Source: Promethearchaeati archaeon SRVP18_Atabeyarchaeia-1
Lineage (GTDB): Archaea > Asgardarchaeota > Atabeyarchaeia > Atabeyarchaeales > Atabeyarchaeaceae
Length of the DNA: 64,000 nt
Direction: 5' to 3'
NCBI GenBank assembly: GCA_037308085.1
Contig: CP147779.1
Coordinates: 2,304,001 to 2,368,000 of the forward strand
Shown: one piece after another, positions 10,972 to 34,713 of the stretch
Layout: the number at the start of each line of letters is the position of its first letter
Position numbering within the stretch: the first letter of the stretch is position 1
Notes under the pieces: generated by a model
What the model was told of the DNA's origin: nothing
Databases searched by the model: none
Seen by the model: only the letters and a program-made list of their open reading frames with translations
Position numbers and translations under genes: made by a program

Positions 10972-11856
10972 ATGAAAGTTGAAGGATGTGTTACCCCGGT
11001 GGTCACCCCGTTTGACTCTGAGGAGGAAGTAGATGAAGAGTCCCTCAAGGAGATAGTTGACTATTTGGTGGATGGAGGAGCCAGCGGCCTATTCGCTGCT
11101 GGAACCGCGGGAGCATTCTATTTGATGACCCCTGAAGAACGGAAACGGGTAACGAGCATCGTGGTAGAGAAGTCGAACGGAAGAGTCCCAGTCTACGCCG
11201 GAACAGGTGGGATAACCGTCAGAGAAAACTTGGACATCGCAAAGCATGCTAAGGACGTTGGCGCTGATGCTGCAGTAATACTTACACCTTACTACGTTAA
11301 GGTCGAAGATGAGGAGCTCTTTCAATACTTTACGACCTTCGCCAATGCCGTTGACATGGAAGTCATACTCTACAATAATCCATCAAGAGCGGGGAACAAC
11401 ATATCACCAGCGCTGCTTGAGCGAATTGTCAACGAGAACAGCAATGTAATTGCCCTCAAAGACAGTAGCGGAGACCTTGCTCAGTACGGCGAGTACGTGA
11501 TGAGGATGAAGGATAAGATCTCCTTGGTGAGTGGCAAGGACGAGCTAATGCTGGCATCCTTAGCTATGGGCGGGAACGGAGTTGTAAGCGCTGTAAGCAA
11601 CATCGTTCCTGAACTCGTATCACAGATCTTTGCTTCGTTCGAGAGGGGTGACATAAGGAAAGCTCAGGAAATACAGAGCAAGTGCTCCACACTGAAGAAG
11701 TCCTTCGGTGGAGCAGCTTACCCAGCACCAATCCTTGCGGCTCTAGATCTCCTAGGAATGAGGGCTGGCAGACCAAGATCGCCAGTGCTGCCCTTGAAAA
11801 ATGAACAAAAAGAAAATATCAGGCAGGCGCTGAAGAGCATCGGAAAGCTACATTGA
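10972..11856 (+). CDS. dapA: DapA/NAL family aldolase (dihydrodipicolinate synthase-like)
   Basis: VTPF, GTAG, LTPYY, LYNNP and LKDSSG (Schiff-base Lys). Exact substrate uncertain; the upstream sugar isomerase suggests a sugar-acid aldolase is possible. Confidence 0.75.
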   Translation: MKVEGCVTPVVTPFDSEEEVDEESLKEIVDYLVDGGASGLFAAGTAGAFYLMTPEERKRVTSIVVEKSNGRVPVYAGTGGITVRENLDIAKHAKDVGADAAVILTPYYVKVEDEELFQYFTTFANAVDMEVILYNNPSRAGNNISPALLERIVNENSNVIALKDSSGDLAQYGEYVMRMKDKISLVSGKDELMLASLAMGGNGVVSAVSNIVPELVSQIFASFERGDIRKAQEIQSKCSTLKKSFGGAAYPAPILAALDLLGMRAGRPRSPVLPLKNEQKENIRQALKSIGKLH

Positions 11857-12037
11857 GAGCCCACAATGCGATCGGGTTAAGAGAGCTTCTTCAGGAAGCT
11901 AAGCAACGACCTGCGAAACTGATCCGTTGCGTCAAACCGGATGCCGTGCTCATTATCTGGCGAGAGCATCAAGAATTCAGAGTTCTGCGCATCAATTGCG
12001 TTCTTGGTGGTGTGCGCCATCCCTAGTCACGCGCGCG

Positions 12038-12799
12038 TCAGGATTCCAGCGATGAAGGCAAGGACGCTCCTCTTGCTGGTATCACATTTATTCCTTTTTC
12101 AGTGATTACCATGGGACTTGTCTTGGACTCATGAAGAGTTCCTCTCATCTTGACCACTGTAAGTCCTCGTTCAAACTTTCCACCGTGCCTTATCTGTTCC
12201 AGAAAGATCACGCCATCAGATATGAACTCCTCCACGTCATAGCGGCTTATCTGCCCCTTCCCGCGCCCCTCCGATATCAGGAGGGTTGTGCAACCGAGTT
12301 CTTTCAACGTGGCGATCAGCCGGTGGATGGCGTGCCGTATCGCGCCAGGTTCTTCGATGACGAGTTCAAGCCCAGGTATTGAGTCGAGTACTGCCCTCTT
12401 AGCATTCGTCGTTTTCTGGAGTTGGCTTATAGCCAACAGTAGAGTGTTCATGTTCAGGAGGCGGGTGACTTCGTCTCTGCCAGCATATGGAACCCTCGAC
12501 TTGGGCGAAGCAATATCTATTATCCCCAGTTTGCCATCTTTCTCCAGCTTCTCCAGATCCCACCCAAAACCTTTCATATCAGCTCTGACTGCTGAAGGTG
12601 ACTCTTCAGTTGTAATAAGAATACCATTCTCTCCGAACTTAGTGACACCTTCGACCAAGAATTGGATGCCCAAAATACTCTTTCCCGTGCCACATCCTCC
12701 AGTGACCAGAATGCACCTTCCTCTTGGAAACCCCCCGTGCAGGAGTTCATCGAGTTGCCCGATTCCAGAAGAAACCAAATTGCCTACCGGTTCACTCAT
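12038..12799 (-). CDS. KaiC-like (RAD55) single-domain ATPase
   Basis: SSGIGQLDELLHGG, Walker A GGCGTGKS, TEE, VLDS, VEEFISDG, KMRG. Confidence 0.92.
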   Translation of the reverse strand: MSEPVGNLVSSGIGQLDELLHGGFPRGRCILVTGGCGTGKSILGIQFLVEGVTKFGENGILITTEESPSAVRADMKGFGWDLEKLEKDGKLGIIDIASPKSRVPYAGRDEVTRLLNMNTLLLAISQLQKTTNAKRAVLDSIPGLELVIEEPGAIRHAIHRLIATLKELGCTTLLISEGRGKGQISRYDVEEFISDGVIFLEQIRHGGKFERGLTVVKMRGTLHESKTSPMVITEKGINVIPARGASLPSSLES

Positions 12800-13152
12800 T
12801 GCTCGCACCTTCTGCCATAACACCTAATACTCGAAGCCCAGCGCCAAGGGAATACTCTCCTGACGCAGGCGAGTCCAGAATCTGTCAAAGAGCTCCTTTT
12901 TTCTGATTCTCCGCTGAAAGACATAATGGGGCAATCCCATATTTAAGCTGTGAATCGTTTTCAACGCCTCTCCTCCTAGCAACGAGGAGCCGGCGCGAAT
13001 ATTATTCGAAACCAGCCAGTTGCTGTTCCACACCTCGATTCCCATCATCTGGCGTATCCCACATATTTTGGCTTTCTTTCCTCATTTCATGTCAAGTTGC
13101 GCCATCGTTATTCTACTCGGTCGCCCTGTACTCGTCTCAGACTTATCGTGTT

Positions 13153-13869
13153 TCACTCCGTAGCCGGTTGTGAGAGCCCCTCTGTTCGCTGGATCTCGAA
13201 CAACAGATCACGCAAACTTGTAGAAGAGTAAGGTAGATTCAGACTGGTAGCGACAAGATTCAGACGGTCTAACAATACTTTCAGATTATGGGCTAGCGGG
13301 ATATCCAGCGCTTCGATAGTTTTCAGATCCATTTCGACAACCGGTTTCATCGCACCAACTATTTTCATGATCAAGTTATCTTGCTCTGATATAAGTGTAC
13401 CTTCCTGGGCGCTTTGCCCGCTATCTAGGTCCAGCAGCCTGCATGTCTCCGCAAAGATCTCCTTCGCGAAAGAATCATCAGGATTACAGCTATCTGCAAG
13501 TTTCGCGTTGAAGCCTGCTAAGAAATCTACTATCTCGTCGATCTTGTCAGACACTAGTTTTGGCGCTCTTATACTAAAGAAGACAATGAATGAATAGTAC
13601 CCGAGAGCCGGTAGGCTCCCAAGGGTTCCGAAGCCTATGGCCTCTATTTCGTCCATTGTTATCACTATGCCGGCTGTCTTTCCCTTCGTTGTGTTGAGTT
13701 GTATCATGGACTGCATTGCCAGCTGATTGGCTTGCGCCTCAGCGAGGAAACCTGCAGGGTACCTTGTTATAGGCGTCGGCCCAGATGAGAGGTCGAACCT
13801 GGAAATGAATACCCCTTTGACATATCTTGATGGGATCATGTTGGACGAGCTTGCTGCCAATTCCCTCAT
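13153..13869 (-). CDS. uDENN/longin-like domain protein
   Basis: N-terminal VFISRFDLSSGPTP..YP matches the F-D-x3-GP-x5-P start of uDENN longins. Confidence 0.6.
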   Translation of the reverse strand: MRELAASSSNMIPSRYVKGVFISRFDLSSGPTPITRYPAGFLAEAQANQLAMQSMIQLNTTKGKTAGIVITMDEIEAIGFGTLGSLPALGYYSFIVFFSIRAPKLVSDKIDEIVDFLAGFNAKLADSCNPDDSFAKEIFAETCRLLDLDSGQSAQEGTLISEQDNLIMKIVGAMKPVVEMDLKTIEALDIPLAHNLKVLLDRLNLVATSLNLPYSSTSLRDLLFEIQRTEGLSQPATE

Positions 13870-13968
13870 AACCTCTCATTTTTCATTGTGCATAATTCAT
13901 AACTGCCGTGAGCTTCTCTATCTTCCGAACGCGGGATTCTGCGTGGATCACTTTTCCCCTCGGCATTG

Positions 13969-14580
13969 TCAGTACTTTAGTTGAGCCTTTGACTCCTGAA
14001 GCACGGTTAGGAGCTGGGCGATTCGAGCCTTAGTCCCAGGCGCCACAAGTTCCAGTCTATTAAGATGTCCAGACTCAATGAAGGAGCTGATTGCAAGTAT
14101 CGTTTTGTCAGCAACCGCTTCTAACTTGTCACCGGGTTCGTTAAGAGCTTCCTCTTCATGAGACTTCTCGCAAACCCTTCGCACTCCTTCGAATAGCCTA
14201 AGTGCGGCATCTCCAGGGTGTCGCCTCACATTCTGCAACTCGCTTATTATGAGGCTTCTAATAAGGGGATACGTCTCCCAGATCATCGATTTAGCTTCTT
14301 CCCCAAACATCACTATTATCCCGGTAGCACCTTCAACGCTACTCCCCTCGGTCCCAACCACACCAACTTTGCCTATTTGGGAAAAAGACATAATTGAGCA
14401 GAGAGCCTCTTTCTTCCCTGTTGAGAGTAGCAACATGGCGTCCTCGGCGACATCCTTTAGCCCTTCGCCCGCGATGAATCCCTGTGGGTAGATAAAAGCC
14501 GGAGCTGGGCCCAGGAGCATGTCAAATCTGGTCACAATCACTCCCTCGAAAAGTAATCGCTCTGGTGACCTGCGCGACAA
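13969..14580 (-). CDS. uDENN/longin-like domain protein, paralog of 13153-13869
   Basis: VIVTRFDMLLGPAPAFIYP start, with a similar beta-alpha-beta order. Confidence 0.6.
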   Translation of the reverse strand: MSRRSPERLLFEGVIVTRFDMLLGPAPAFIYPQGFIAGEGLKDVAEDAMLLLSTGKKEALCSIMSFSQIGKVGVVGTEGSSVEGATGIIVMFGEEAKSMIWETYPLIRSLIISELQNVRRHPGDAALRLFEGVRRVCEKSHEEEALNEPGDKLEAVADKTILAISSFIESGHLNRLELVAPGTKARIAQLLTVLQESKAQLKY

Positions 14581-15005
14581 TCTGGTTAACCCCCATTACC
14601 CCATCGTGCGTGCACTGCTCGAACACCGTGTTCAGCTAGTAGAGTAGTTGAAGTTCCTTTTATTTTCTTCTTACTTATCTTCTACACAGAATTGTCTCTC
14701 CGGGCTCCCTCGATGGTTAAGCGCTGACACCGAGACTCAACCATAGAACACCACATCCGCGATAGCCCTTTTCTCGCCTCGACTAGAGAAATTGGAGTCT
14801 GGCAAACAAGCTCTGGCCTGACTTGGGTCGGGAAAGGCACATCAAGCGCTAGGATGACTATGCGCATTATTAAGTTCATTTGCCTATGAACATTGTGAGC
14901 ATCGAAAGCGAGGTACGTTGATAGACTGTGCCCTGCAGAAATGACAACATTTATGATGCAGTGCGTGGTTAGCAGAAACTGACATGAGGGGGTGTTCTTC
15001 TGTAA

Positions 15006-15539
15006 ATGCCCATAATCAAAATTCTGATAATGGGTCTGCCAGCGTCCGGCAAGACAACTTTCGTCAAGCATGTCTTTGAAGGAAAGGAATTGAACGATCT
15101 GAAGGACTACATTCCGACATATGGCGTGAATATAGCATTGTATAACTACAAGGGCTCGGAGGACATTAAGATCTCAACCTTCGATTGTGGTGGTCAGACA
15201 AGTTTTATCGACACCTATTTGACTGATCAATGGGTTCCCAGACTCTTCGCGGAAGTCTCGGCTCTTTTCTTCGTGGTAGATTCGTCATCGAAGAAGACTC
15301 TCAAGGATGCCAACAAGCTTTTCCACAAGTACCTTGAGAACGTATACAAGTATTCTGAAGACGTAGTGATCCATGTACTGGCATCAAAATGGGACAAACA
15401 TACCATCACAAGAGATGAACTCAAGGAAGCATTCTCGGATCTCGACGTTCGTCCCATATCCGTCGTCGACGGTTCAGCCAGACAGGTTACGCAGGCGATA
15501 ATGGACAGGCTAATCAGCGAAAGGAAGACGAAAAAGTGA
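15006..15539 (+). CDS. Small Ras-superfamily GTPase, Rag/Gtr1-like (Arf-related)
   Basis: G1 GLPASGKTT, G2 PT.G, G3 DCGGQ, G4 SKWD, G5 ISV. Confidence 0.85.
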   Translation: MPIIKILIMGLPASGKTTFVKHVFEGKELNDLKDYIPTYGVNIALYNYKGSEDIKISTFDCGGQTSFIDTYLTDQWVPRLFAEVSALFFVVDSSSKKTLKDANKLFHKYLENVYKYSEDVVIHVLASKWDKHTITRDELKEAFSDLDVRPISVVDGSARQVTQAIMDRLISERKTKK

Positions 15540-15609
15540 CTCCCCTGCTTCTCCCATCTGCCAGCAATCATCGCTACGAGCAGGACTAGCAGGCTCTTGA
15601 CCTCCGCAA

Positions 15610-16362
15610 TTACCTTCGTCCCACCGTGAGCCTGCCAGTTCCACCGTTCCTCGATACTGGAATCCATTTGGACTCGAAGTTGGTCCTTCTCATCTTGGAT
15701 ATGCAGATCTCCTTGCTTATGAAGCCCTGTTGCTCTGCGTTTCTGAAGAGTATGACGGAATCGAGCAACTGCTGAAGAGAGGCCACAGTCTGCACGTCAT
15801 GCATTCCCTCCGTCAATATGAAGATCGAGGTTGAGTTTGACTCCTTGAGCTTGGCAACCATCACGGAAGCTAGTTGATAGACAGACTGGGGAGCCGCATT
15901 CATGAGCAATGACGACAGAATATCGACTGAAACCCTTATCCGCCTACCCCCTATCTTTTCGGTCGCTGTCGATACCGCGGCCGCTACGTGATTCAAATCC
16001 ATTGATGATCTTACAACCTTATCAATCACCTGAGGATAGGGAACATCAGTTGTCCGCCAACTGTAGCAATCAACGAACATTAGGCTGGACCTCTGCTCCT
16101 GCGTCAACTCGTCAAAGTCGAGGCCCACTTCCTGCCAACTCTCCTTGACTTCGTCAACAGATTCGTTTGAGAGAACCATCACTCCACCTTCACCAGCCCT
16201 CAACCCATCGGCTATGAATTGCAGGCAGAAAATGTGTTTCCAGCTTCCTGGAGGCCCGTACAGAAGAGTCGATGAACCCTGAGGTATTCCCCCCTCGATC
16301 AATGCATCAAGTCCTTCTATTCCTGAACTCATTCTTCTGCTCATTTCTCGCAGCTCCTCCAA
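15610..16362 (-). CDS. KaiC-like ATPase with degenerate Walker A
   Basis: SSGIEGLDALIEGG, GPPGSWKH in place of GxxGxGK[ST], KMRR. Confidence 0.85.
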   Translation of the reverse strand: MEELREMSRRMSSGIEGLDALIEGGIPQGSSTLLYGPPGSWKHIFCLQFIADGLRAGEGGVMVLSNESVDEVKESWQEVGLDFDELTQEQRSSLMFVDCYSWRTTDVPYPQVIDKVVRSSMDLNHVAAAVSTATEKIGGRRIRVSVDILSSLLMNAAPQSVYQLASVMVAKLKESNSTSIFILTEGMHDVQTVASLQQLLDSVILFRNAEQQGFISKEICISKMRRTNFESKWIPVSRNGGTGRLTVGRR

Positions 16363-16372
16363 GAGTTCCCTG

Positions 16373-16990
16373 CTAATGCTCCCATTCGTGTCCTGTCATT
16401 TCCAAGTTGTACCTAAACTCGCAGCATGAATCACCTTTCGCGGTGCACTTCGATTCGACGAAGCCCACCTTTCTTCCTAGGGAATGCTCCAAGGCACCCG
16501 CAATTACTCCTCCAGTAAAATAGCAGATACTCACTCCTATGTCCATAATCCCGCAACAGTCGGCACACTCTTCGACCTGATAAACCAACAGCTTGCCTTT
16601 CTCGAATTCAGTCAACGTCAAGAGACCGGTGCCAGTCGATTTGAATCCTGTCTGTAGCGCAGAGTACCCGGTTGAGAGTCTTGCCTCCTTGAGATTCTCA
16701 GCTTCAGCAAAATCACGGTAACCTGGGAGTTTCTGAAGCATTGGCATGCCTCCTTCTGTAAGTCCAATCCCAGTCTGCCTTCCAGCCTCGAAAAGCACGT
16801 GACCCATAGACTCAGCCAAGACCAGGGCTGCAAGCACTGGCCTCTGGTAAGTCAGTAGGTCAACTGAATCCCCAAGTTTCTCTCGGATCCTATCCTTGTA
16901 TCCTGGCGTGTGAAGCATTCTCTCAAGTTGCGCTTTCGTGAGTTCTCTAATGATCTCCTTCTCTCTCACAACACGTGCTCTCGTCGACAT
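16373..16990 (-). CDS. V4R domain protein (Bet3/TRAPP-like fold)
   Basis: REKLG, ECADC...C.F.GG.IAG and ESKC.AKGD.CCEF. Confidence 0.85.
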   Translation of the reverse strand: MSTRARVVREKEIIRELTKAQLERMLHTPGYKDRIREKLGDSVDLLTYQRPVLAALVLAESMGHVLFEAGRQTGIGLTEGGMPMLQKLPGYRDFAEAENLKEARLSTGYSALQTGFKSTGTGLLTLTEFEKGKLLVYQVEECADCCGIMDIGVSICYFTGGVIAGALEHSLGRKVGFVESKCTAKGDSCCEFRYNLEMTGHEWEH

Positions 16991-17040
16991 CTCTTAACTT
17001 TCTCCTCGCGCTCTCCTTTATTTCTTTCTTCATTGACAGA

Positions 17041-17634
17041 CTATACTGTATATCTGAATTCACAGTTTGGGTCACCTTTTGCGCAACACTTCGATTCAAC
17101 AAATCCTACTTTTCTGCCAAGAACGCCTTCTAGAGTGCCAGCGATATTTCCACCAAGGAAGTAACATACACTCTGTCCCAAGTCTCCGACTCCATAGCAT
17201 ATGGCACACTCTTCAACCTGAACCACAATCAGCTTGTTCTTCTCAAATTCGCTTAACGTTAGGAGACCCTGGCGAGTTGTTTCTGCAAAAATCTGAAGAG
17301 TCGTAAACTCATCTGAAAGCCTAGCCTCCTCCAAGTTATTGGCATCAGCAATGCTACGAAAACCCGGTTGTTTCCGTACCTCGGGCCACATTTCCTCGAG
17401 CATGTAGGTTGCGGGTCTCCTGCCTGCCTCAAAAAGGATTGGTCCCATAGACCTGCTGAGAGACAAGGCACCAAGCATGCGTTCCTGGTAGGATAATAGG
17501 TCAACCGAGTCCCCAAGTTTTTCACGAATTCCGATCTTGCTAGGTGAACTTAGCAATTTCTCAAACTGCATTCTTGCCATGGCCTTGAGGACCTTCTCGG
17601 CGATCGTGAGCAGACAACCTCCCCCAATAATCAA
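17041..17634 (-). CDS. V4R domain protein (Bet3/TRAPP-like fold)
   Basis: Paralog of its neighbours: ECAIC...CYFLGG.IAG and ESKCCAKGDPNCEF. Confidence 0.85.
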   Translation of the reverse strand: MIIGGGCLLTIAEKVLKAMARMQFEKLLSSPSKIGIREKLGDSVDLLSYQERMLGALSLSRSMGPILFEAGRRPATYMLEEMWPEVRKQPGFRSIADANNLEEARLSDEFTTLQIFAETTRQGLLTLSEFEKNKLIVVQVEECAICYGVGDLGQSVCYFLGGNIAGTLEGVLGRKVGFVESKCCAKGDPNCEFRYTV

Positions 17635-17663
17635 TCCAATCGATTAGCTATTAGCGTTGTATT

Positions 17664-18245
17664 TCATGAAATGCTACACCTGAATTCACAATAGGAATCT
17701 CCTTTAGCTTGGCATAGTGATTCGACGAAGCCGACGTTTTTTCCAATTACGACCTCCATTGCGCCAGCGAGCTGACCTCCGAGATAGTAACATACGCTTT
17801 CTCCGAGGTTAGGGAGCCCAGTGCAGGACACACATTCTTCAACTTGGAAAATGAGGAGTTTCCCTTTTTCGTATCTGACCATGTTTATAATCCCCGTACC
17901 AGTCATCTGATACATTGCTTGAACAATCGACCACTCAGTAGAGCGTTGGGCTTCCTGCAGCGTACTAGACTTATTGATACTCTGATAGTTTGGCAGCTTC
18001 TGTATCATGGATAGGGATTTCGTGGAGAGAGCCCTTCCAACTTTCTTTCCAGCTTCTGCTAGTACCGGTCCCATGGATTTGCTTAGAGCGAGTACTCCTA
18101 TCACGCGTTCTTGGTATGCCCACATGTCTATGAAATTGCCGAGCCTTTTGCGGAGCCTAGCGTTGACCTTTGGGTTCTCTATCAGTCTTTCAAACTGCCT
18201 TTCAGCTAACGCATCTAGAATATCGTCCGCTTTCAATTGAACCAC
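17664..18245 (-). CDS. V4R domain protein (Bet3/TRAPP-like fold)
   Basis: ECVSC...CYYLGG.LAG and ESLCQAKGDSYCEF. Confidence 0.85.
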   Translation of the reverse strand: MVQLKADDILDALAERQFERLIENPKVNARLRKRLGNFIDMWAYQERVIGVLALSKSMGPVLAEAGKKVGRALSTKSLSMIQKLPNYQSINKSSTLQEAQRSTEWSIVQAMYQMTGTGIINMVRYEKGKLLIFQVEECVSCTGLPNLGESVCYYLGGQLAGAMEVVIGKNVGFVESLCQAKGDSYCEFRCSIS

Positions 18246-18281
18246 GTCACTCCTTCCATGTTTTGATGTCCTTCCCTACTT

Positions 18282-18866
18282 CTAGCTTTCCCTAATCAAT
18301 CTGTTTAGATTCTCGATTTCCCTTCTATACTTGGTCCGCAGTTCTGGATCGTCTGCAAGATGTCCCCTGTTCTCGGCAGCTTTATTGATTAGATTAGTGA
18401 GTGAATCCTTCCGAGTCGTGAGTTCCGACGCGAGGAGTTTCGTTAGTCTCTGGCCCAGTCTTATGGGCGTCCTCACCGCGTCTTGGGTTTTGACTGGGGC
18501 GTAAGGTGGCTCACTGCTCTTCTGCGAGATAGGATCATCTTCACAAATCGCGGAATTTGGGAACTTGTCCATGTCGTTTTCAGCGAATGCATTCCTCACG
18601 TTCTCATGGAACCCCGAAGTACTATCCTCGTCGTGAGAAGCATCGACCAAAGCCGCGAAGATCAGTGATGGAGATTCGTTGAAGGCAGACTTTGAGGTTC
18701 CTGATGCCATGATTCTTATGTCAACGCCGCGAATCTCTTTCATGAACGCGATCATCGCCTTGAGGAGACCACTAACAAGGTAGCAGTTCACAAGTGTCGT
18801 CCTGAAACCCTCATGGTAGATGCAGATTCCATTCTTCTCTGAGACAACGCATGGTCCATGGGTCAT
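18282..18866 (-). CDS. Longin-like domain protein
   Basis: G.CIY followed by the LVSGLL.A...F..EI helix typical of Asgard-type longins. Confidence 0.55.
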   Translation of the reverse strand: MTHGPCVVSEKNGICIYHEGFRTTLVNCYLVSGLLKAMIAFMKEIRGVDIRIMASGTSKSAFNESPSLIFAALVDASHDEDSTSGFHENVRNAFAENDMDKFPNSAICEDDPISQKSSEPPYAPVKTQDAVRTPIRLGQRLTKLLASELTTRKDSLTNLINKAAENRGHLADDPELRTKYRREIENLNRLIRES

Positions 18867-19197
18867 ATATTATCACGACACAGTGATCTTAGCGATCATA
18901 CAGCAATCGCGATTTACCCCCCCAAGACTTCCTTACCCATGCAAAGTGGCCCGGTGCCGAGGGAAAACTACAGGAAGTAGCATCTACCTGGTAACAATAG
19001 GCAGAAGCAACGATAAAAACGTTGCGAGGTCATTGTGAGATCCACAATCTCCCCCATGATATTGTGGGATAAGCAGCATAGTTCACCTGCCCTTTTATCG
19101 GAATTGGTAGCATGGATGCTGCTTGGGCCCTCATCTTCGTACTTGAGGCTGGTGGGCGCAAAGCATGGACCAATAACGAGGAAGGGATTAAGAGGTA

Positions 19198-19471
19198 ATG
19201 AACAAACCGAAATACGGTGAGAAGGTCTCCACCGGGATTCCTGGGCTGGACGAACTCATCGAAGGCGGGTTCACGGAGACCGCCGAAGGGTCGTCAGATC
19301 TCAGCGGGCCTGGCGTCGAGAAATTTCTAGCCACTGGCATAGTTTCTCCAACATTAGAATCTAGGGGCAATGAACTCCAGAAAGATCGCAATACGGAAGA
19401 TGAGAGCGGTCACGCACAGCTTGAAGGAATTTGAGCTGTTCATCACTGAACTGGGGATTGCCGTTATGCCA
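19198..19471 (+). pseudogene. Internally deleted, frameshifted KaiC-like ATPase remnant
   Basis: KVSTGIPGLDELIEGGF is joined almost directly to GVEKFLATGIV; KIAIRKMRAVTHS...FITELGIAV then follows in another frame. The P-loop core is missing. Confidence 0.8.
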
Positions 19472-19693
19472 ATTCAAGGAATTACATTAATCATCCTTTT
19501 CATGGATCTTCTTCAGGGGTTCTCTGCCAAACGTGAAGAGGTTGCCGATATCGGTCGAGTTGCGACAGTCGCACGAGGACCGGAGATTCATGCGCCGAAT
19601 AAGAATAGACCTTTAGTCGACTGCGACCACTATGGTAATTAGTGCCGTGGGCAATGGAGTCGTCTCACTAGCAGGCAGGAGCATCTGGCTAGG

Positions 19694-20930: not shown

Positions 20931-21914
20931 TCATGCCTTCCATTTCTTTATGGTTACCCTTGTTCCTCTGCCGACCTCAGTTTCGATGCTGAACTCATCC
21001 ATGAGACGCTTCGCGCCACCAAGCCCTATTCCCAGACCCCTCTTGGTGCTGAAACCACCTTCGAGGGCCTTCTCAACATCTGCGATCCCAGGTCCGCTAT
21101 CGTCTGCAATTATCACGATGCCCACTCTGTCACCCTCCTCAATGGGTTTAATGGCTATCCTACCGGCTCCATGAGCATGAGCCACGATGTTCTTTGCGAG
21201 TTCAGAAGTCGAGATTGCAATCTTGCTTTGGTCGGCTTCCGAGAAGCCTAGTTTCTTCGCCAGGTCCTCCGCTTTCTCAGCCGCGGTCATTGCACGGGCA
21301 TCACTTGAGGCATCCACCCCTTCAACAATGGATCCGAATTCCTCCTCGTTCTCAACCGCGATGGCTATGGTGGCATCATCGTTTCTATTCCCCCATTCGT
21401 CCAGGATTCTTTCAGCAACGAATTGTGGTTGTTCGTAGGCCAGGGGATAATCGGATAAACTAAACCGCCCGGAAACCCCATCTGAATAAAGAACTACCGC
21501 TCTGAGTGTGTCGTATGTGTATCCGAATTTCATAATCTTCCTAGCATTTACTCCGAGTATACCATCTAGCGAGGTAGGATGCATCGGGGGCTCGGCAACT
21601 ATTGATACATCGACATTCCCAATGCCACAAAAAATGAGTCGGTGTGCAGTTCTATCAATCCTTACTGCCCCTGCGACCACGCCTCTCGTCCCACGTAAAT
21701 GGGTATGAAGACTTGAAACGATCTGTTCGACGTCTCTCGTGTGATTCTCTAACACATATTGTCTTGCCTTAGTAGACGCAACCGCTGCTTCTTCCCCGTG
21801 ACCGAGTCCGTCTATTACGACGAGAAGCGTCTGCCCATTCCATTCCTTTACGAGATAATCGTCACCATTTGTATTCTGGTCTAATGCCGGTCTGGATGCA
21901 ATACCTAATTTCAA
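20931..21914 (-). CDS. rsbX: RsbX-like PP2C phosphatase fused to a C-terminal RsbT-like kinase
   Basis: NGD, IDGLGHG, GIGN, SDG and DDAT phosphatase motifs, followed by ELAKN, DSGPGI and GLGIGL GHKL kinase motifs. Confidence 0.85.
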   Translation of the reverse strand: MKLGIASRPALDQNTNGDDYLVKEWNGQTLLVVIDGLGHGEEAAVASTKARQYVLENHTRDVEQIVSSLHTHLRGTRGVVAGAVRIDRTAHRLIFCGIGNVDVSIVAEPPMHPTSLDGILGVNARKIMKFGYTYDTLRAVVLYSDGVSGRFSLSDYPLAYEQPQFVAERILDEWGNRNDDATIAIAVENEEEFGSIVEGVDASSDARAMTAAEKAEDLAKKLGFSEADQSKIAISTSELAKNIVAHAHGAGRIAIKPIEEGDRVGIVIIADDSGPGIADVEKALEGGFSTKRGLGIGLGGAKRLMDEFSIETEVGRGTRVTIKKWKA

Positions 21915-22117: not shown

Positions 22118-23074
22118 CTATTGTTTCTTGCTCAGCCTCAGCCCGAGTTTCTCGTACGCGTATTCTAGTCCTTCTCGCAACGTCCTGCGTGTCACGATGC
22201 CCTGCAGTTCCACACCGAGCTCCACTAGCGTAGCTGCCACATCCGGCCTAACCCCCGCGATGATCATCTCTGAGCCCATCAACCTCACGGCTTGGATCGT
22301 GCGCAGAATATGATTGGCTGCCTTCGTGTCAATCGCTGCGATGCCGCTAATATCCATAATGACGATCTCACTCTTAGCTCGTACAATGTACTCCAAGACA
22401 GATTCAGTGAACTGCCTCGCACGAGCAGAATCAAGAATACCTATCAGCGGCAGCATCACAATGCTCTCCCAGACCTCAACGATAGGAGTAGAGAGTCTTC
22501 TGATCATCTCGTCCCTTTCCTTGAGTTCATCCATGTTCCTTTTGGCTTTAATCTCCATCCGATTGCGCATTAACGCTTCGACGATGCTCACGGAGAGGGT
22601 CTCCACAGCCCCCTGATCAGTGGGATCATAGCCTGACTCCTTGTTGGCCAAAGCAATCATACCGATCGTCTTACCAGCATATTTCAACGGGACGCCCAGG
22701 AAAGAGGCTATCGGTGGATGCCCTTTAGGAGTTCCAACCCAATCGGGGTGTGTCGAAGGGTCATTGGTTATCATAGATCTCTCATCTTTCAGTACTCTCC
22801 CCCAGATCCCCCGGATCTCCAAGTTCCTAAGCAACCTCGCGGCTTCCGATCCCGGCATCCTACACTCAGCCCAACCTGGGTCACTCAAAGCAATACAGTC
22901 ATAACGACCAACTTGATTCACTTCACCTATGAAACCGAACTTGCTACCGGTCAAGCTCTCGGCAACGGCAAGGCAGGTCTTGCAGAGTTGCTCTTCTGTT
23001 TCACATGTCAACGTTTCCCTGAGAATCCTGTTTACCCCCTCCAGAATGTCGCTCCTATCAATGTCTTTTCTCAC
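22118..23074 (-). CDS. GAF-STAS protein (RsbR paralog)
   Basis: GAF domain (P.GHPPI..FLGVPL, LANK) plus STAS domain (LSTPI, PLIGILDS.RA, DISG...IDT). Confidence 0.88.
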   Translation of the reverse strand: MRKDIDRSDILEGVNRILRETLTCETEEQLCKTCLAVAESLTGSKFGFIGEVNQVGRYDCIALSDPGWAECRMPGSEAARLLRNLEIRGIWGRVLKDERSMITNDPSTHPDWVGTPKGHPPIASFLGVPLKYAGKTIGMIALANKESGYDPTDQGAVETLSVSIVEALMRNRMEIKAKRNMDELKERDEMIRRLSTPIVEVWESIVMLPLIGILDSARARQFTESVLEYIVRAKSEIVIMDISGIAAIDTKAANHILRTIQAVRLMGSEMIIAGVRPDVAATLVELGVELQGIVTRRTLREGLEYAYEKLGLRLSKKQ

Positions 23075-26886: not shown

Positions 26887-29800
26887 TCACTTTTCAGATT
26901 TCTTTGGAGCCGTTTGCGGCTTGGCAGATTCCTTTAGGTCATAGGATGATCCCAGCAGAGCTGGTGTTAGTATCTTCTCAAATAGCTCGATGTAGGGCTC
27001 CCCTATGCTCACGAGACCAACAAGCTCAGTGTCCTTTTGCGCCATCGGTGCGAAAAGTATCTCTTCAGAGTCCTTTGAACACCCGTAGCACGATAGATCT
27101 GCAGATGCTCTGAGGCTAACGTTTCCCATCTTAGCTATCTCTGCCAGTGTCTGCATCTCCTTTTCGTCACCTTTTGTTTCTCCAACGACCAGTGTTACTC
27201 TCGTCGCCTTCTTGACTTTGGGGATTTCTTCCAAGGGTGCCTCTGACACTGTTGGAAGCATGATCATTATGTGGCTCTTCGTCCGCTTTATCATATCCTG
27301 TACGTGTGACATCAGTGCCACTTTCGTCACCACAGGCCAACTCTTCTCGCCTCCAAACATCGGGCTCTTCTCAAGTTCCATCCAGGCGCTTTGGAGGACC
27401 CATTCAACGCTGGCGGATGTCTTCCTCAGCTTATCGATGCTCTCACTGAGGTTCGCCAGAGACTTCCTAGTCTCCTCTTTAAGTAGCGCTTCATTTTTGT
27501 CTATGTAGCCGATGAGAGTCGAGTCAGTGTTGGTCATGGAGTTCTCGAATCTGGTTTGGTGGGTCAGCATAGTCTCTTGGAGGTTCTTTTCGTTTACCAT
27601 TGATATCTCTCTGTATCTTTCGTAGGACCTCGATAGGAGGTATCCACATGTGCCAGCAGCACCAAATGCCTCTTGCTCGTAGTCCTGCAGGTGCGATGAG
27701 ATCACTCTTTGGAACCTCTCCTTTGCGCCGGCAGCTTCTGACTTGAACTCTCCAAGTGAAGTATTTGTCAGCTTGGTCAATGACGTGCAAATTGTAGATG
27801 TGGTGTCGACCATTGTGTTGATCTGTTTGTTTGAGACATCATTGAGTTCTTTCACAGTTTTGCCCGTGAGCTGCTCAATTTGTCCGGAGAGGTTCTCTTT
27901 CGACTCTGAGACTCTAGTCGTGGATGCTTCCACGAGGTTCTTGATTTCCTCCATTGCCTGTCCACTGAAGCTGGTAAGATCCCTCTGTAAAGCTGCAGCC
28001 AAGTTGTCGAACTCACCCGTGACGGCCGCCATCGCTCCCCGAATAGAGTTGGTCGTAGTCTCAGTAATCTCCTTACTCGTGGCGAAAGTAGAGCTAACCA
28101 GTTTGTTGACGTTAGATTGAATTAATGATCTTGCTCCATCAGAGTTCTTCGATGTCTGCACAACAAGCTGCTGCAGATTGGACTTGCCCCGTTGGATGTG
28201 CCCATCCAGCTGGTCGAGGTGCTTGGCCAGAGCCGCTTCTAGGGAAGCATGCGTTTCTGCGGCTAGATCACTAATTTCCTTTGTATGCAAAGCGTGTTGA
28301 GCATTCGCGCTTTCAATCAGCTGCTTCTGGATCCTAGTCAGAGACGCAATCTGTTTTGCATAAAGGTCAGCCAAAGCCTTTCTTGCAATCTCGCTCTCGC
28401 CAGCGTACTGCTTCGCTGAAACATCAATCATGTCCAGCACCAGATTCTCGAAGCTCCCGACCGATGAAGAGTAATCTGCAAATCTTGGCAGCAGGCTTGC
28501 TGCGACCACTTCACCCTTCTGTAGCTCGAGTCTTGCGTTCTTGATATTTGTGGATGGTGCCGCAACGACATCCGTTTGGATCCCTGTGATTTCTTCCTCG
28601 AAAGAACGGTGCGCAGTCGCAACTTCCTCCTTCAAGTATTTCCTCAATTCGTCAGTCACTCTCTTCTCAAAACCTTTCAGCACCTCCCTGACCTCTGAAG
28701 TAATGGAGGTCTTTCTTGCGGCTCCTGGTGACTTCTTGGTTGAAACTCTTGCGGGGTTCTCAGCGATTGGGATTGAAGGAACCGATGCAAGAATTCTTTC
28801 AACTATGCCATTCATCTCCTTCTCTAGGGCTGGGAAGTAGGAGGAAACTTTGCTCTCTGCTTTCTGAGACAGTCCTGACAACAGGGCGTCATTCTTCTTA
28901 CCCAGTGCGATGCTCATCTTCTGCAGATTCCTCTCAATGTCAGATACAACGGTTCCCAAGGCGTTGTTGCAGCCGGGGATTATTGTCGAGAGAATCGACT
29001 CTAGAAATGATGTTGTCAGCTGACATGATGAGATATGCGACGTAATGGTGCCGCTTAAGGTGCCTTTTATCGCTGAAGCAGCTCCAGTCAGATTGGCAAG
29101 TCCGCTTGAGTATACTTCTTCAACCCTCGCTCTTAGTTCCTCGAAAGAGGGCTTTGTTTTCGCAGCGACAGACTCAACCATCGTTTGAGCTGTCGAGCTG
29201 ATCTTGTCACCTTCGCGGATTGCGCTATTCACTAATATATCCAAGCTTCTGGAGACGAGCTGAGCTGATTCATTTACATCTGCCTTGTACATGAACCACC
29301 ATTTGCCAACAGATGTTGCGGTCTTCTCCTTGAATTCTGCTAGAAGTCTAGTCAGTTCTGCCGTGAAACTCTTCGTCGTCTCGTCAACTGAGGACTTCAA
29401 CTTGCTTAGGTTGGAGGAAGCCGACTTCATGAAACGATCTGTCACTTCTCTGATGTTGGACTGAACTTCCAGTGACTTCTCGCCAAAGGTTTTTCTCTGA
29501 TTCTCCAACGTTTCGGAACTCCGTGCCTTAACAGCAACTATAGTGGCTCTCTCTTTTTCCTCAAGTTTGCCCTGAATTGAGGCGATCTCGTTCTCAAGGA
29601 GAGTTAGGTTTTCTCTGCTCTGTGTTTTGTACTCTTGTAGGTCCGTGTTCACTGTCCCTAGGAACGTCTGAACCCCACCCTTGTAGCTCTCAAGGAAAGA
29701 CGAAGTCACGTCTGTTGCTTCCTTCAGATAATTCTTGGCAGCCGTATCGAACTTTGTCGTGACGTTGCCTATTCCTGAAGCCAGCTCCGCCTCTGCTTCA

Positions 29801-30375
29801 TTTGATTTCGCCTTATGCGTGTCGACGTGCTTCTTAATTGCGTCCGTAATCATGTTCTTCGTAACTTCGGTTTCCTGCTTGAGTTTCTCCAGCATCTCAG
29901 CGATGCTCTTCGAAGAGTTCTGCTCGTATAGCTCTATTTCACCTTTTGTTTGACCCACGCTTGATCTTGCAGTTTGCAGGGCCTCTTTCTTCCACTCCTC
30001 GCAGTTCTGGCTAACAGCTGCCAAGGTGGAATCAATAGTGCTTGTTGTGTTCGCCCCTATGTTCTTGGCAATCTTCTGAAAGTCCTTAAGAAAAGCCACG
30101 AACCCCGCATAAGGAGGTATGGCTGCATATCGGTCGACCACACTGGGGATCCGCCTGATCAACCGCTCATTTTCTAACTCAACCATCGCTTTCGATGTCA
30201 ACACGAAACCCAAACCACTCTTAGTTGAGATCTCTCCGGCTGTCATAGGACCGATGCTGAGAAGAACCCTGAGCGCATCTGTCGCCGGGTCGGAGATGCC
30301 CATTGCTTCCTTCAAGATCTGATTAAATAACACGCCTTCTTCTCCAACAGTCTTTGCCTGCGTCTCCTTTGCCAT
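26887..30375 (-). CDS. TrmB-like wHTH, ~900-aa amphipathic helical region and TrmB-type C-terminal domain
   Basis: N-terminal GPMTAGEIS..SG...L...RLI...RY.AIPP; long low-Pro helical middle; C-terminal D.EEILFAP. Confidence 0.75.
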   Translation of the reverse strand: MAKETQAKTVGEEGVLFNQILKEAMGISDPATDALRVLLSIGPMTAGEISTKSGLGFVLTSKAMVELENERLIRRIPSVVDRYAAIPPYAGFVAFLKDFQKIAKNIGANTTSTIDSTLAAVSQNCEEWKKEALQTARSSVGQTKGEIELYEQNSSKSIAEMLEKLKQETEVTKNMITDAIKKHVDTHKAKSNEAEAELASGIGNVTTKFDTAAKNYLKEATDVTSSFLESYKGGVQTFLGTVNTDLQEYKTQSRENLTLLENEIASIQGKLEEKERATIVAVKARSSETLENQRKTFGEKSLEVQSNIREVTDRFMKSASSNLSKLKSSVDETTKSFTAELTRLLAEFKEKTATSVGKWWFMYKADVNESAQLVSRSLDILVNSAIREGDKISSTAQTMVESVAAKTKPSFEELRARVEEVYSSGLANLTGAASAIKGTLSGTITSHISSCQLTTSFLESILSTIIPGCNNALGTVVSDIERNLQKMSIALGKKNDALLSGLSQKAESKVSSYFPALEKEMNGIVERILASVPSIPIAENPARVSTKKSPGAARKTSITSEVREVLKGFEKRVTDELRKYLKEEVATAHRSFEEEITGIQTDVVAAPSTNIKNARLELQKGEVVAASLLPRFADYSSSVGSFENLVLDMIDVSAKQYAGESEIARKALADLYAKQIASLTRIQKQLIESANAQHALHTKEISDLAAETHASLEAALAKHLDQLDGHIQRGKSNLQQLVVQTSKNSDGARSLIQSNVNKLVSSTFATSKEITETTTNSIRGAMAAVTGEFDNLAAALQRDLTSFSGQAMEEIKNLVEASTTRVSESKENLSGQIEQLTGKTVKELNDVSNKQINTMVDTTSTICTSLTKLTNTSLGEFKSEAAGAKERFQRVISSHLQDYEQEAFGAAGTCGYLLSRSYERYREISMVNEKNLQETMLTHQTRFENSMTNTDSTLIGYIDKNEALLKEETRKSLANLSESIDKLRKTSASVEWVLQSAWMELEKSPMFGGEKSWPVVTKVALMSHVQDMIKRTKSHIMIMLPTVSEAPLEEIPKVKKATRVTLVVGETKGDEKEMQTLAEIAKMGNVSLRASADLSCYGCSKDSEEILFAPMAQKDTELVGLVSIGEPYIELFEKILTPALLGSSYDLKESAKPQTAPKKSEK

Positions 30376-32994: not shown

Positions 32995-33303
32995 ATGCAA
33001 ACGACGATAAGGTTCTTCACATCCAAGCACTGTGGCTTCTGCCGAGCAGCAAAAACAATACTAGACGGAATCAAGCAGAGCTTCGGCGAGAGCATGAGGG
33101 TAGAGGAGGTAGACATTGACGAGAATCCCCGAGCCGCAATCGAAGAAGGAATACTCGCACTCCCAGTTATCATCGTAGGTTCTTGGAAGTTCGTGGGGGT
33201 TCCTGACAAGGATGACATCATGACAGCAGTACTTAATTCCTTTGGCGGCCAAACGATCACTGCTTCAGAAAACAACAGAGAGATTCTCCAGGAGGGCAGA
33301 TAG
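32995..33303 (+). CDS. Thioredoxin-fold protein, KaiB-like, directly upstream of KaiC
   Basis: CGFC active site, VDIDENP..A...GILALP, G.P. Confidence 0.8.
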   Translation: MQTTIRFFTSKHCGFCRAAKTILDGIKQSFGESMRVEEVDIDENPRAAIEEGILALPVIIVGSWKFVGVPDKDDIMTAVLNSFGGQTITASENNREILQEGR

Positions 33304-33307
33304 CACA

Positions 33308-34048
33308 ATGGATAGAACACCTTCAGGCATAACGAATCTCGACAAGCTAATAGAAGGAGGATTCCCAAAGGGGAGGACGATGCTTGTAGCAGGGGGGGCA
33401 GGGTGTGGGAAGACCATTTTCTCGTTGCAGTTCGTGTACTCGGGTGCAGTGCTTTACGATGAACCGGGGGTCTATGTCTCATTTGAGCAGCCTGTTGACG
33501 AAGTAGTTAGGGACGCGCAGAGATTCGGGTGGGACTTCGAGGAGATTCAGCGAAACAAGAAACTCGCACTCCTAGATTACTCCGCTGCGAAGACAAGAAC
33601 AACGGAGGTAGTCGTCGAGAGCCCAGAGTTCAACCTAAACCCTCTGATCAAAGCCATCGAGTTCACAGCCAAGGAAGTGGGCGCCAAGAGAGTCGTACTT
33701 GATTCCATTACTGCACTCCTCTTGCAGTTCCGGCACACGGACATTGTTCGTAGGGAACTGCAGCGTGTTAGTTCAGCTTTGAAGAGGATTGGATGCACCA
33801 CGGTCTTAACCTCGGAAGTGCCCAGAGGCCAGGTTGGATTCGGTAGGTTTGGTGTAGAGGAGTTCGTCGTAGATGGGGTAATCGTTCTCCAAGTCATTCA
33901 GAAGGGACTGCTGAGATTTAGGTGCATTGAGATAACTAAGATGAGAGGCACGAAAGCCGAGCTTGGGCTGAGAGCCTTAGGCATCACTGAAAGTGGGATG
34001 ATAGTATACCCAGAGAAGGTGTACACGATCGAGCAACTAGTCGTGTGA
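33308..34048 (+). CDS. KaiC-like (RAD55) single-domain ATPase
   Basis: PSGITNLD, GGAGCGKT, SFEQ, VLDS, VEEFVVDG, KMRG; ATG at 33308, 4 nt after the thioredoxin stop. Confidence 0.93.
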   Translation: MDRTPSGITNLDKLIEGGFPKGRTMLVAGGAGCGKTIFSLQFVYSGAVLYDEPGVYVSFEQPVDEVVRDAQRFGWDFEEIQRNKKLALLDYSAAKTRTTEVVVESPEFNLNPLIKAIEFTAKEVGAKRVVLDSITALLLQFRHTDIVRRELQRVSSALKRIGCTTVLTSEVPRGQVGFGRFGVEEFVVDGVIVLQVIQKGLLRFRCIEITKMRGTKAELGLRALGITESGMIVYPEKVYTIEQLVV

Positions 34049-34173: not shown

Positions 34174-34713
34174 ATGCCTACTATAATCAAACTAATAATA
34201 ATGGGTCTACCGTCGTCGGGGAAGACAACGTTCGTCAAACACATATTCGAAGAGAAGGAATTCAAGGGGATCGAAGACTACAAGCCGACGTTTGGCGTAG
34301 GCATATCTCTTTACGAGTATAAGGGTTCAGAAGGCATGATGGTCTCCACGTTTGACTGTGGGGGTCAGACAAGTTTCATTGACACATATATGACTGACCA
34401 ATGGGTTCCGACCCTCTTCGGAAAAGTCGCCATATTCTTTTTCCTTGTCGACTCCTCAGCAAGAGATAACCTGGATAGTGCCGCTAAGCTCTTTCGCAAG
34501 TACTATGAGAATCTTAGGAGGAATTCAAGCGCCGCAAAGGCATATGTACTGGCATCAAAATGGGACAAGCATCAAGTCATGCTTGACGAGTTGAGTCCGT
34601 TTTTCAAAGAGATCGACATATACCCAGTATCGGTCATAGACGGATCAGCTCGGAAAGTGTTCGAAGAGATAATGCATAACCTAATAGAGGAAAGAAAAGC
34701 GCAAGCAGATTAG
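34174..34713 (+). CDS. Small Ras-superfamily GTPase, Rag/Gtr1-like; close paralog of 15006-15539
   Basis: GLPSSGKTT, FDCGGQTSFIDTY.TDQWVP, SKWD. Confidence 0.85.
   Translation: MPTIIKLIIMGLPSSGKTTFVKHIFEEKEFKGIEDYKPTFGVGISLYEYKGSEGMMVSTFDCGGQTSFIDTYMTDQWVPTLFGKVAIFFFLVDSSARDNLDSAAKLFRKYYENLRRNSSAAKAYVLASKWDKHQVMLDELSPFFKEIDIYPVSVIDGSARKVFEEIMHNLIEERKAQAD

Follow-up and report, generated by a model that had tools for sequence, protein, structure and literature searches.

Control of Rag and Arf GTPases at the eukaryotic lysosome involves three longin-based GTPase-activating protein (GAP) complexes, and Asgard archaea hold related longins. The catalytic arginines of these complexes are R78 of NPRL2 (R84, together with N85, in yeast Npr2), R164 of FLCN and R147 of SMCR8 (PMC12999518, PMC9473554, PMC12290439). 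NPRL2, FLCN, SMCR8 and C9orf72 share a GP motif that other longins lack (PMC12290439). NPRL2-like longin asCOGs, their fusions with two-component domains and longin-Rag fusions were described for Asgard archaea in 2020 (preprint 10.1101/2020.10.19.343400), and longin-GTPase fusions have been reported (PMC10933270; preprint 10.1101/2020.10.19.343400). Which GTPases the Asgard longins serve is a question that has been raised (PMC12290439), and in a cultured Lokiarchaeon, GTPase genes do not as a rule share operons with their regulators, and matching partners by gene order is described as difficult (PMC10933270). Here, we analyzed a 64,000-nucleotide stretch of DNA (hereafter the window) of the wetland-soil Asgard archaeon Candidatus Atabeyarchaeum deiterrae (SRVP_Atabeyarchaeota_1, here Atabeyarchaeia-1), whose genome was published as complete (PMC11291895). 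The window covers bases 2,304,001–2,368,000 of a single-contig genome of 2,808,651 bp (contig CP147779.1; 96.92% complete, 5.08% contaminated). It contains a tandem pair of genes, A and B, for paralogous predicted longins that possess the GP motif and lie divergent from a gene for a Rag-like GTPase. The constant module at this and related loci is the GP-longin pair plus a KaiC-like ATPase, to which V4R proteins and varying small GTPases are frequent additions. The pair and the GTPase are arranged as follows.

13153–13869, minus strand: open reading frame (ORF) A, 238 amino acid residues; longin domain at residues ~14–150, then a three-helix tail at ~155–231 in the AlphaFold2 (AF2) model
13969–14580, minus strand: ORF B, paralog of A, 203 residues; longin domain at residues ~9–142, then a helical tail in the AF2 model
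14581–15005: divergent spacer of 425 bp between B and the GTPase gene
15006–15539, plus strand: small GTPase of 177 residues, G domain only; matches Pfam Gtr1_RagA and, in the PDB, Gtr1

ORF A is 99 bp downstream of ORF B. Judging by BLASTP, A and B are true paralogs, with 31% identity across 102 N-terminal residues (E 3e-11). The original prediction, which was made from the DNA sequence alone, described two paralogs head-to-head with a GTPase carrying DCGGQ, and this arrangement is confirmed. It also had both proteins begin with their motifs. The motifs are present, but they lie 15–20 residues in from the N-termini: FISRFDLSSGPTP at residues 21–33 of A (F25-D26-x3-G30-P31) and VTRFDMLLGPAP at residues 15–26 of B (F19-D20-x3-G24-P25). 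In a 32-sequence alignment of the A and B families, G30, P38 and F41 (A numbering) were invariant, and G19, V20, F25, D26, P31 and P33 were conserved in at least 90% of the sequences. This conservation indicates that the motif is under selection. The A-B pair is unique in the genome and its family is narrow, as a search of 1.8 billion representative proteins gave 25 clusters at E<=1e-3. In the tree, A and B form separate, monophyletic, long-stemmed clades, and the relatives from Asgard families f7 and f14 have paralog clades of their own; the deep joins are unreliable. The separate, long-stemmed clades argue that the duplication is old.

Scans of A, B and all 21 A-family members against Pfam and NCBIfam gave no significant family. 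AF2 models were built on the family alignments; their predicted local confidence (pLDDT) was 78 for A and 80 for B and the predicted template-modeling score (pTM) was 0.55 and 0.63, respectively. DSSP assigned to both models the beta-beta-alpha-beta-beta-beta-alpha-alpha topology of longins, followed by the three-helix tail, and A and B are therefore predicted to be members of the longin-domain superfamily. In VIA structural comparison, A matched the Lokiarchaeota longin 8yqg with a Z of 14.1, Lst4 with 11.2, FNIP2 with 10.9, a C9orf72-SMCR8 entry with 10.9, a GATOR1 chain with 10.8 and FLCN with 9.5. Similar to A, B matched 8yqg (14.4), Lst4 (11.4), a C9orf72-SMCR8 chain (7o2w; 11.3), NPRL2 (10.1), FNIP2 (9.6) and FLCN (9.5). 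The Z values of SNARE, TRAPP, adaptor and roadblock folds were ~7–9.6. Foldseek agreed with this comparison, with weak E-values; for B they were 3e-4 for 8yqg and 1.5e-3 for the C9orf72-SMCR8-WDR41-ARF1 entry.

The ESM Atlas leads for A were NPR2, C9orf72 and Folliculin, including archaeal clusters with Pfam NPR2 in 19% of their members (score 0.93). Template-modeling (TM) scores of 0.59–0.65 were found to C9orf72, SMCR8, eukaryotic NPR2, FLCN/SMCR8-type uDENN proteins and a Heimdall folliculin-like cluster. For B, the scores ranged from 0.62 to 0.67 and the matches were C9orf72, SMCR8 and longin-GTPase fusions. The best structural match of B was an archaeal Arf/Ras cluster of 341 residues, which implies longin-GTPase fusions. 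Moreover, a profile restricted to the longin domain and including distant relatives (A5) gave a borderline match, its sole one to a natural protein among PDB sequences, to residues 7–72 of human NPRL2 (E 0.009). In this alignment, the FD-x3-GP...YP..F of the family was paired with NPRL2 and the motif was opposite G20-P21. NPRL2 was reached by this trimmed profile solely; the full-length profiles A1 and A2 gave nothing but coiled-coil noise against the PDB sequences. Distant relatives of A and B also had weak matches (E 0.003) to Afi1, which we take to be a uDENN-related family. Taken together, the predicted folds, the Atlas leads and the borderline profile match group A and B with the GP-motif longins NPRL2, FLCN, SMCR8 and C9orf72, and both possess the GP motif of the GAP-type longins (G30-P31 in A and G24-P25 in B). 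The longin fold with an F/W-x4-GP turn that had been proposed for both proteins is thus borne out by the AF2 topology, by best matches to FLCN/FNIP/Lst4, NPRL2 and C9orf72-SMCR8 and by the A5-NPRL2 match.

The arginine finger of the catalytic GP-motif longins is in the beta4-beta5 loop, before the last strand and beside the GP loop. The corresponding column was read from an hmmalign profile alignment of 45 Asgard GP-longins; because Arg78 of NPRL2 lies six residues past the aligned stretch, we infer the correspondence from this distance and from residue numbering. The residue of A in this column is Ala88 and that of B is Val81, after which comes a conserved Glu82, so the arginine finger that the original prediction had proposed to look for is absent from it in both paralogs. 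Longer Asgard relatives of 275–355 residues (L077, L078 and L081) have ARGG or KRGG in this column. Across the KaiC-linked subfamily the column is variable, with A, V, T, H, K, N and rarely R. The arginine of the 'RFD' motif, R24 in A and R18 in B, was considered as an alternative finger and set aside, since K, M or S takes its place in relatives. No Pfam DENN, Folliculin or NPR2 match was found in A or B, and only three helices follow the longin domain in the AF2 models. A short helical tail stands in place of the NPRL2 C-lobe, and no DEPDC5-like partner accompanies the pair. As neither A nor B has a DENN domain, the label 'uDENN' first given to them is a misnomer. Their sequences do not support an arginine-finger GAP in the case of A or of B; by their motif, both are like C9orf72, which is the partner without the arginine.

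The GTPase encoded at 15006–15539 carries FDCGGQ, the switch II sequence FDCGGQTSFIDTY, the P-loop GLPASGKT and the G4 motif SKWD. It matches Pfam Gtr1_RagA at 4e-22 (79 bits; cut-off 22) and Arf at 2.7e-17 (63 bits), a modest margin. Its closest solved relatives are yeast Gtr1 (1e-11), Arl1 (6.5e-11) and RagA (1e-9), and in the alignment with Gtr1 the switch II pattern DCGGQ..F(I/M)(D/E).Y is in register. Thus, its switch II is Rag-like, but its P-loop is nearer the Arf type. The polypeptide ends at residue 177, just past the G domain. The designation RagA-like therefore holds for the G domain and not for the whole Rag architecture, since the C-terminal roadblock domain of Rags is absent. The protein is the best of eight Gtr1_RagA/small-GTPase matches in the 2.8-Mb genome, and its family alignment is conserved. 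The second-best Gtr1_RagA match (1.3e-17), encoded at 34174–34713 on the plus strand ~19 kb from the first, has 179 residues and is 60% identical to it. A table of eukaryotic signature proteins (ESPs) likewise lists two Gtr1/RagA-family GTPases in the Atabeyarchaeia-1 genome (PMC11291895). The gene of this second GTPase is directly downstream of a KaiC gene (33242–34048) on the same strand, with no longins involved, and the same KaiC-GTPase pair is found in Atabeyarchaeia-2 (L023 1504–3028, minus strand). Relatives of the Rag-like GTPase in families f14 (L082 1099–2025, minus strand) and f7 (L083 1027–1941, minus strand) have 304–308 residues, as they possess a C-terminal extension of ~130 residues after the G domain; the Atabeyarchaeia versions are bare, with 177–179 residues.

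The other neighbors of the pair, which together with A, B and the GTPase form a cassette, are as follows.

12038–12823, minus strand: KaiC-family ATPase downstream of A (Pfam KaiC 1.5e-71)
15610–16362, minus strand: KaiC-like protein with DUF7504 (Pfam KaiC 5e-33, DUF7504 8e-13)
16373–16990, 17041–17634 and 17664–18245, minus strand: three tandem V4R (Bet3/TRAPPC3-related) proteins (Pfam V4R 5e-12 to 3e-14)
18282–18866, minus strand: protein of 194 residues at the head of the cluster; Atlas lead to a Fuz/Mon1/HPS1-type first longin domain

Conservation of this order was assessed in eight contigs of Asgard family f1, which are the window, L016, L017, L001, L019, L002, Atabeyarchaeia-2 (CP147780.1) and the metagenome-assembled genome (MAG) LC30. 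The last two are the nearest named relatives of the locus. The gene orders were as follows.

Window, L016 and L017: (longin-like protein of 194 residues) – one to four V4R – KaiC-like/DUF7504 – GTPase on the opposite strand – B – A – KaiC
L001 and L019: as in the window, minus the GTPase
L002: B – A – KaiC
Atabeyarchaeia-2: amino-acid permease – B – A – KaiC – V4R; a 66%-identical ortholog of the GTPase is ~49 kb off
LC30: B – A, then the GTPase, convergent, on the other side

B and A were in tandem on the same strand in all eight contigs, with gaps from –32 to 192 bp. KaiC was downstream of A in seven of them and is the most conserved neighbor of the pair, and the KaiC-like/DUF7504 gene was syntenic in L001, L016, L017 and L019. 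Two to four V4R genes were just upstream of the pair in five of the eight contigs, and one V4R gene was nearby in Atabeyarchaeia-2. The GTPase gene adjoined the pair in four contigs and in two arrangements, divergent in the window, L016 and L017 and convergent in LC30. With eight small-GTPase matches in 2.8 Mb, the chance of such an adjacency within 1 kb is below ~1%. The KaiC-like ATPases and V4R proteins, which are the most conserved neighbors, did not figure in the original prediction. In Atabeyarchaeia-2, the gene directly upstream of B-A-KaiC encodes an amino-acid permease (L015 5509–6957, plus strand); given the amino-acid sensing of GATOR1, this single case is suggestive only.

A profile search of 301 Asgard genomes gave matches in 100, of which the strong ones were in families f1, f5, f7, f8 and f14, usually as two or three clustered copies. 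The order is KaiC – KaiC (466 residues) – longin – GNAT – longin in f7. In f14, a longin and a KaiC gene on the minus strand are divergent from a longin gene on the plus strand, which is followed by a third longin, TrmB and a Ras-family GTPase. KaiC-like genes flank the GP-longins in the f14 loci and in every f7 locus whose flank is long enough, and the small GTPases near GP-longins vary in family, being Rag-, Ras- or Arf-like. A distant relative, P0098 (L030 1390–2319, plus strand, 309 residues), has a GP-longin fused to a Cys-rich, V4R-like C-terminus (V4R E 0.061; Afi1 E 0.003). Its gene is convergent with that of an Arf/Ras GTPase of 174 residues, and two further Arf-like GTPase genes follow. 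Such a longin-V4R-like fusion was found in P0098 and one relative.

The two KaiC-type proteins of the cassette differ in their Walker A motifs. The one at 12038–12823 has a canonical GGCGTGKS, whereas that at 15610–16362 has a degenerate GPPGSWKH that departs from GxxxxGK[ST] and is, from this motif, probably an inactive KaiC-type scaffold. The genome has 25 KaiC-like matches. KaiC and V4R also occur together in one open frame of 425 residues (genome 1784253–1785485) and in adjacent genes (genome 2653652–2654643), and KaiC-V4R coupling thus exists without longins. For the protein at 18282–18866, the N-terminal ~107 residues gave an Atlas score of 0.90 and a TM of 0.50 to archaeal Fuz_longin_1 clusters, which is a lead only. 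Orthologs of this protein occupy the corresponding place in L001 and L016, and by this structural lead it may be a third longin of the cassette.

Within the spacer between B and the GTPase gene, an A-rich box at ~14656–14685, 76–105 nt upstream of the B start, reads GTAGAAGATAAGTAAGAAGAAAATAAAAGG in the sense of B and contains the imperfect direct repeat AGAAGATAAGTAAGAAGAAAATAAAAGG. Two related contigs, when aligned, retain the box, which is a possible promoter element. An ORF of 129 residues at 14682–15071 on the minus strand overlaps the start of the GTPase gene; its sole support is the open frame, and it was taken as spurious. An Rfam scan of 11800–19600 matched nothing. Near the longin locus are genes for the signaling proteins SpoIIE-HATPase (20931–21914) and GAF-STAS (22118–23074). 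Seven of the 25 KaiC-like matches fall within 46 kb at genome 2291557–2338018 (window 1 to ~34000 plus upstream sequence), a region that looks like a signaling-gene island. An ORF of 1162 residues at 26887–30375 on the minus strand has a counterpart of the same length on L017, for which only faint TrmB and weak apolipoprotein-like Pfam matches were found. Finally, the protein of 434 residues encoded at 34829–36133 on the minus strand, convergent with the second Rag-like GTPase, consists nearly entirely of TPR repeats (11 stretches).

The explanation that we favor, at a little under even probability, is that the A-B pair is a platform for small GTPases that works without a catalytic arginine, either as an exchange factor for guanine nucleotides (GEF) or as a GAP of the MglB kind, and that it is under the control of KaiC and V4R proteins. 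A and B, as old paralogous GP-motif longins, would assemble as a longin-longin heterodimer, for which the invariant tandem arrangement and the old duplication provide indirect support. The two FD-x3-GP beta1-beta2 loops would form the surface with which the dimer docks onto a small GTPase, on its nucleotide/switch side. As client, we propose the divergent Rag-like GTPase of 177 residues and possibly also its paralog at 34174–34713. The dimer would then be a nucleotide-state-specific platform, acting as a GEF or, like MglB, as a GAP that moves Gln64 of the GTPase itself into place. The pair would probably be controlled by the cassette, that is, by one active KaiC, one KaiC-like protein with a degenerate Walker A and several Bet3-like, ligand-binding V4R proteins. 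Because neither subunit has a catalytic arginine, a platform is likelier than an arginine-finger GAP, and the GTPase is kept as the likely client because an adjacency of such low chance recurs in rearranged form. Several observations weigh against this explanation. The GTPase is not adjacent to the pair in L001, L019, L002 and Atabeyarchaeia-2, no small GTPase was found within 8 kb of the f7 GP-longins in the regions examined, and in f5 and f8, GP-longins are present in genomes without a relative of the Rag-like GTPase at E<=1e-10. KaiC-like ATPases are the more constant neighbors, and the pair could therefore work with KaiC alone. As to the fold, the AF2 models are of moderate confidence (pTM 0.55–0.63), the Z margin between longin subfamilies is small (~1–2 units) and the NPRL2 sequence match (E 0.009) is borderline. 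A predicted complex of A, B, the GTPase and GTP, with the GTPase as partner, gave ipSAE values of 0.23 and 0.12 (mark 0.32) and is evidence neither way.

If KaiC were the true partner, the longin pair would be a partner or output module of KaiC-like ATPases without any action on GTPases, and the neighboring GTPase would be incidental or a client of KaiC. This is consistent with the KaiC-like gene beside the GP-longins in seven of the eight f1 contigs, in the f14 loci and in every f7 locus of sufficient flank, as well as with the KaiC gene that precedes the second Rag-like GTPase and is conserved there in Atabeyarchaeia-2. KaiC-family ATPases have been proposed as hubs of archaeal signal transduction (Makarova et al. 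2017, as cited in PMC5847659), and from other Asgard archaea, fusions of NPRL2-like longins with two-component domains are reported (preprint 10.1101/2020.10.19.343400). We nevertheless regard it as unlikely, since all characterized GP-motif longins act on a small GTPase, since longin-GTPase fusions and repeated, differently arranged GTPase neighbors are hard to explain without a role in GTPase regulation, and since 25 KaiC-like matches in the genome raise the chance of adjacency. The V4R proteins suggest another possibility, in which they and the longin pair would make up an exchange factor for a small GTPase resembling the core of TRAPP, where a longin heterodimer is flanked by Bet3-family subunits and binds Rab1 (PMC10933270). 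The V4R genes near the pair in the f1 contigs, the fusion of a GP-longin to a V4R-like C-terminus beside GTPase genes and the Mon1/Fuz-like lead for a third longin all fit such an assembly. It is made quite improbable by the TRAPP longins themselves, whose Z of 8.4–8.7 is below that of the FLCN, NPRL2 and C9orf72 longins and from which the GP motif is reported absent (PMC12290439), and by the lack of V4R in the f7 and f14 clusters. Moreover, V4R pairs or fuses with KaiC elsewhere in the genome without longins, and the V4R proteins may therefore belong to the KaiC side. The reading given originally, a minimal GATOR1- or C9orf72-SMCR8-like heterodimer that acts on the adjacent Rag-like GTPase with an arginine finger, is very improbable. 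It shares the fold class and GP motif of the catalytic longins (PMC12290439), it has a Rag-like G domain next door, and the ARGG/KRGG of L077, L078 and L081 is as published for Asgard FLCN/SMCR8-type longins. However, with Ala88 in A, Val81 and Glu82 in B, a column that varies across the KaiC-linked family and an 'RFD' arginine, the only conserved basic residue near the loop, that is replaced in relatives, neither paralog offers a finger. The pair also lacks a DENN domain, an NPRL2 C-lobe and a DEPDC5-like partner, its GTPase lacks the roadblock domain through which Rags dimerize, and the two are adjacent in only four of the eight contigs.

For the non-arginine platform, the complete small genome with ~8 small GTPases leaves a short list of candidates, comprising the two longins, one or two Rag-like GTPases, two KaiC-like proteins and three V4R proteins. 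A whole longin subfamily lacks the arginine and is accompanied by KaiC-like ATPases, which points to a connection with prokaryotic signaling that is missing from the eukaryotic complexes. In its fullest form, which we consider distinctly unlikely, the pair would be a prokaryotic GTPase switch in which V4R ligand signals and KaiC ATPase or phosphorylation signals are passed via the longin heterodimer to the Rag-like GTPase. If this were true, control of a GTPase by nutrient sensing would predate eukaryotes, the GATOR1, FLCN and CSW GAPs as well as TRAPP-like longin/Bet3 assemblies might be elaborations of it, and the catalytic arginine would have been acquired later or belong to a sister lineage. 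The ESP table lists two proteins of cog.006355 ('NPRL2-like longin domain') in LC30 and none in Atabeyarchaeia-1 (PMC11291895). The LC30 MAG has exactly two relatives of A and B, which are presumably the two cog.006355 proteins. In a literature search, KaiC, longin and Asgard were not found together in searchable papers. As far as these papers go, both the tandem pair without the arginine and its conserved cassette of KaiC, V4R and GTPase genes appear to be new.

Similar to A and B, NPRL2 and NPRL3 of GATOR1/SEACIT, the GAP for RagA/Gtr1, are two paralogous subunits of longin fold, with a Rag-type GTPase as the candidate client in the case of A and B. NPRL2 also has the N-terminal F-x4-GP strand-turn followed by P-x-x-F. 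Different from NPRL2-NPRL3, A and B have no equivalent of Arg78/Asn79, no NPRL2 C-lobe and no DEPDC5, their GTPase has neither a roadblock domain nor a Rag partner, and their context is KaiC and V4R proteins rather than a lysosomal scaffold. C9orf72, which acts with SMCR8 in the CSW complex as an Arf GAP, has [W/F]-D-x3-G-P with identical spacing, W33-D34...G38-P39 against FD-x3-GP (PMC12290439), and it too has no arginine finger; its Atlas TM to A and B is 0.62–0.63 and its Z ~11. C9orf72, however, pairs with the arginine-bearing SMCR8 and has a DENN domain, whereas A and B both lack the arginine and both lack DENN. FLCN-FNIP and Lst7-Lst4, GAPs for RagC/Gtr2, are also longin heterodimers with the GP loop at the GTPase interface, and A and B match FLCN, FNIP2 and Lst4 with Z values of 9.5–11.4, but A and B have no equivalent of Arg164 and no DENN domain. 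MglB-MglA is similar in that a small dimeric platform of the roadblock/longin superfamily is encoded beside its small GTPase; MglB differs in its roadblock fold, which is not of longin topology, in being a homodimer and in having no GP motif. In the 2011 structure of Miertzschke et al., the GAP mechanism of MglB reportedly needs no arginine from the regulator. The TRAPP core, a Rab GEF with Bet3-family subunits and a Bet5/Trs23 longin heterodimer, is similar to the locus in bringing Bet3/V4R-type proteins, two longins and a small GTPase together; different from A and B, its longins have no GP motif and match less well in structure, and TRAPP has no counterpart of KaiC. For the Asgard GP-longins in the literature, retention of the arginine finger has been described; the KaiC-linked subfamily of A and B lacks it. 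A and B are nonetheless members of an already known superfamily, the one to which the previously published Asgard NPRL2-like longin asCOGs and FLCN/SMCR8-type longins belong, and they have the same GP motif (preprint 10.1101/2020.10.19.343400; PMC12290439).

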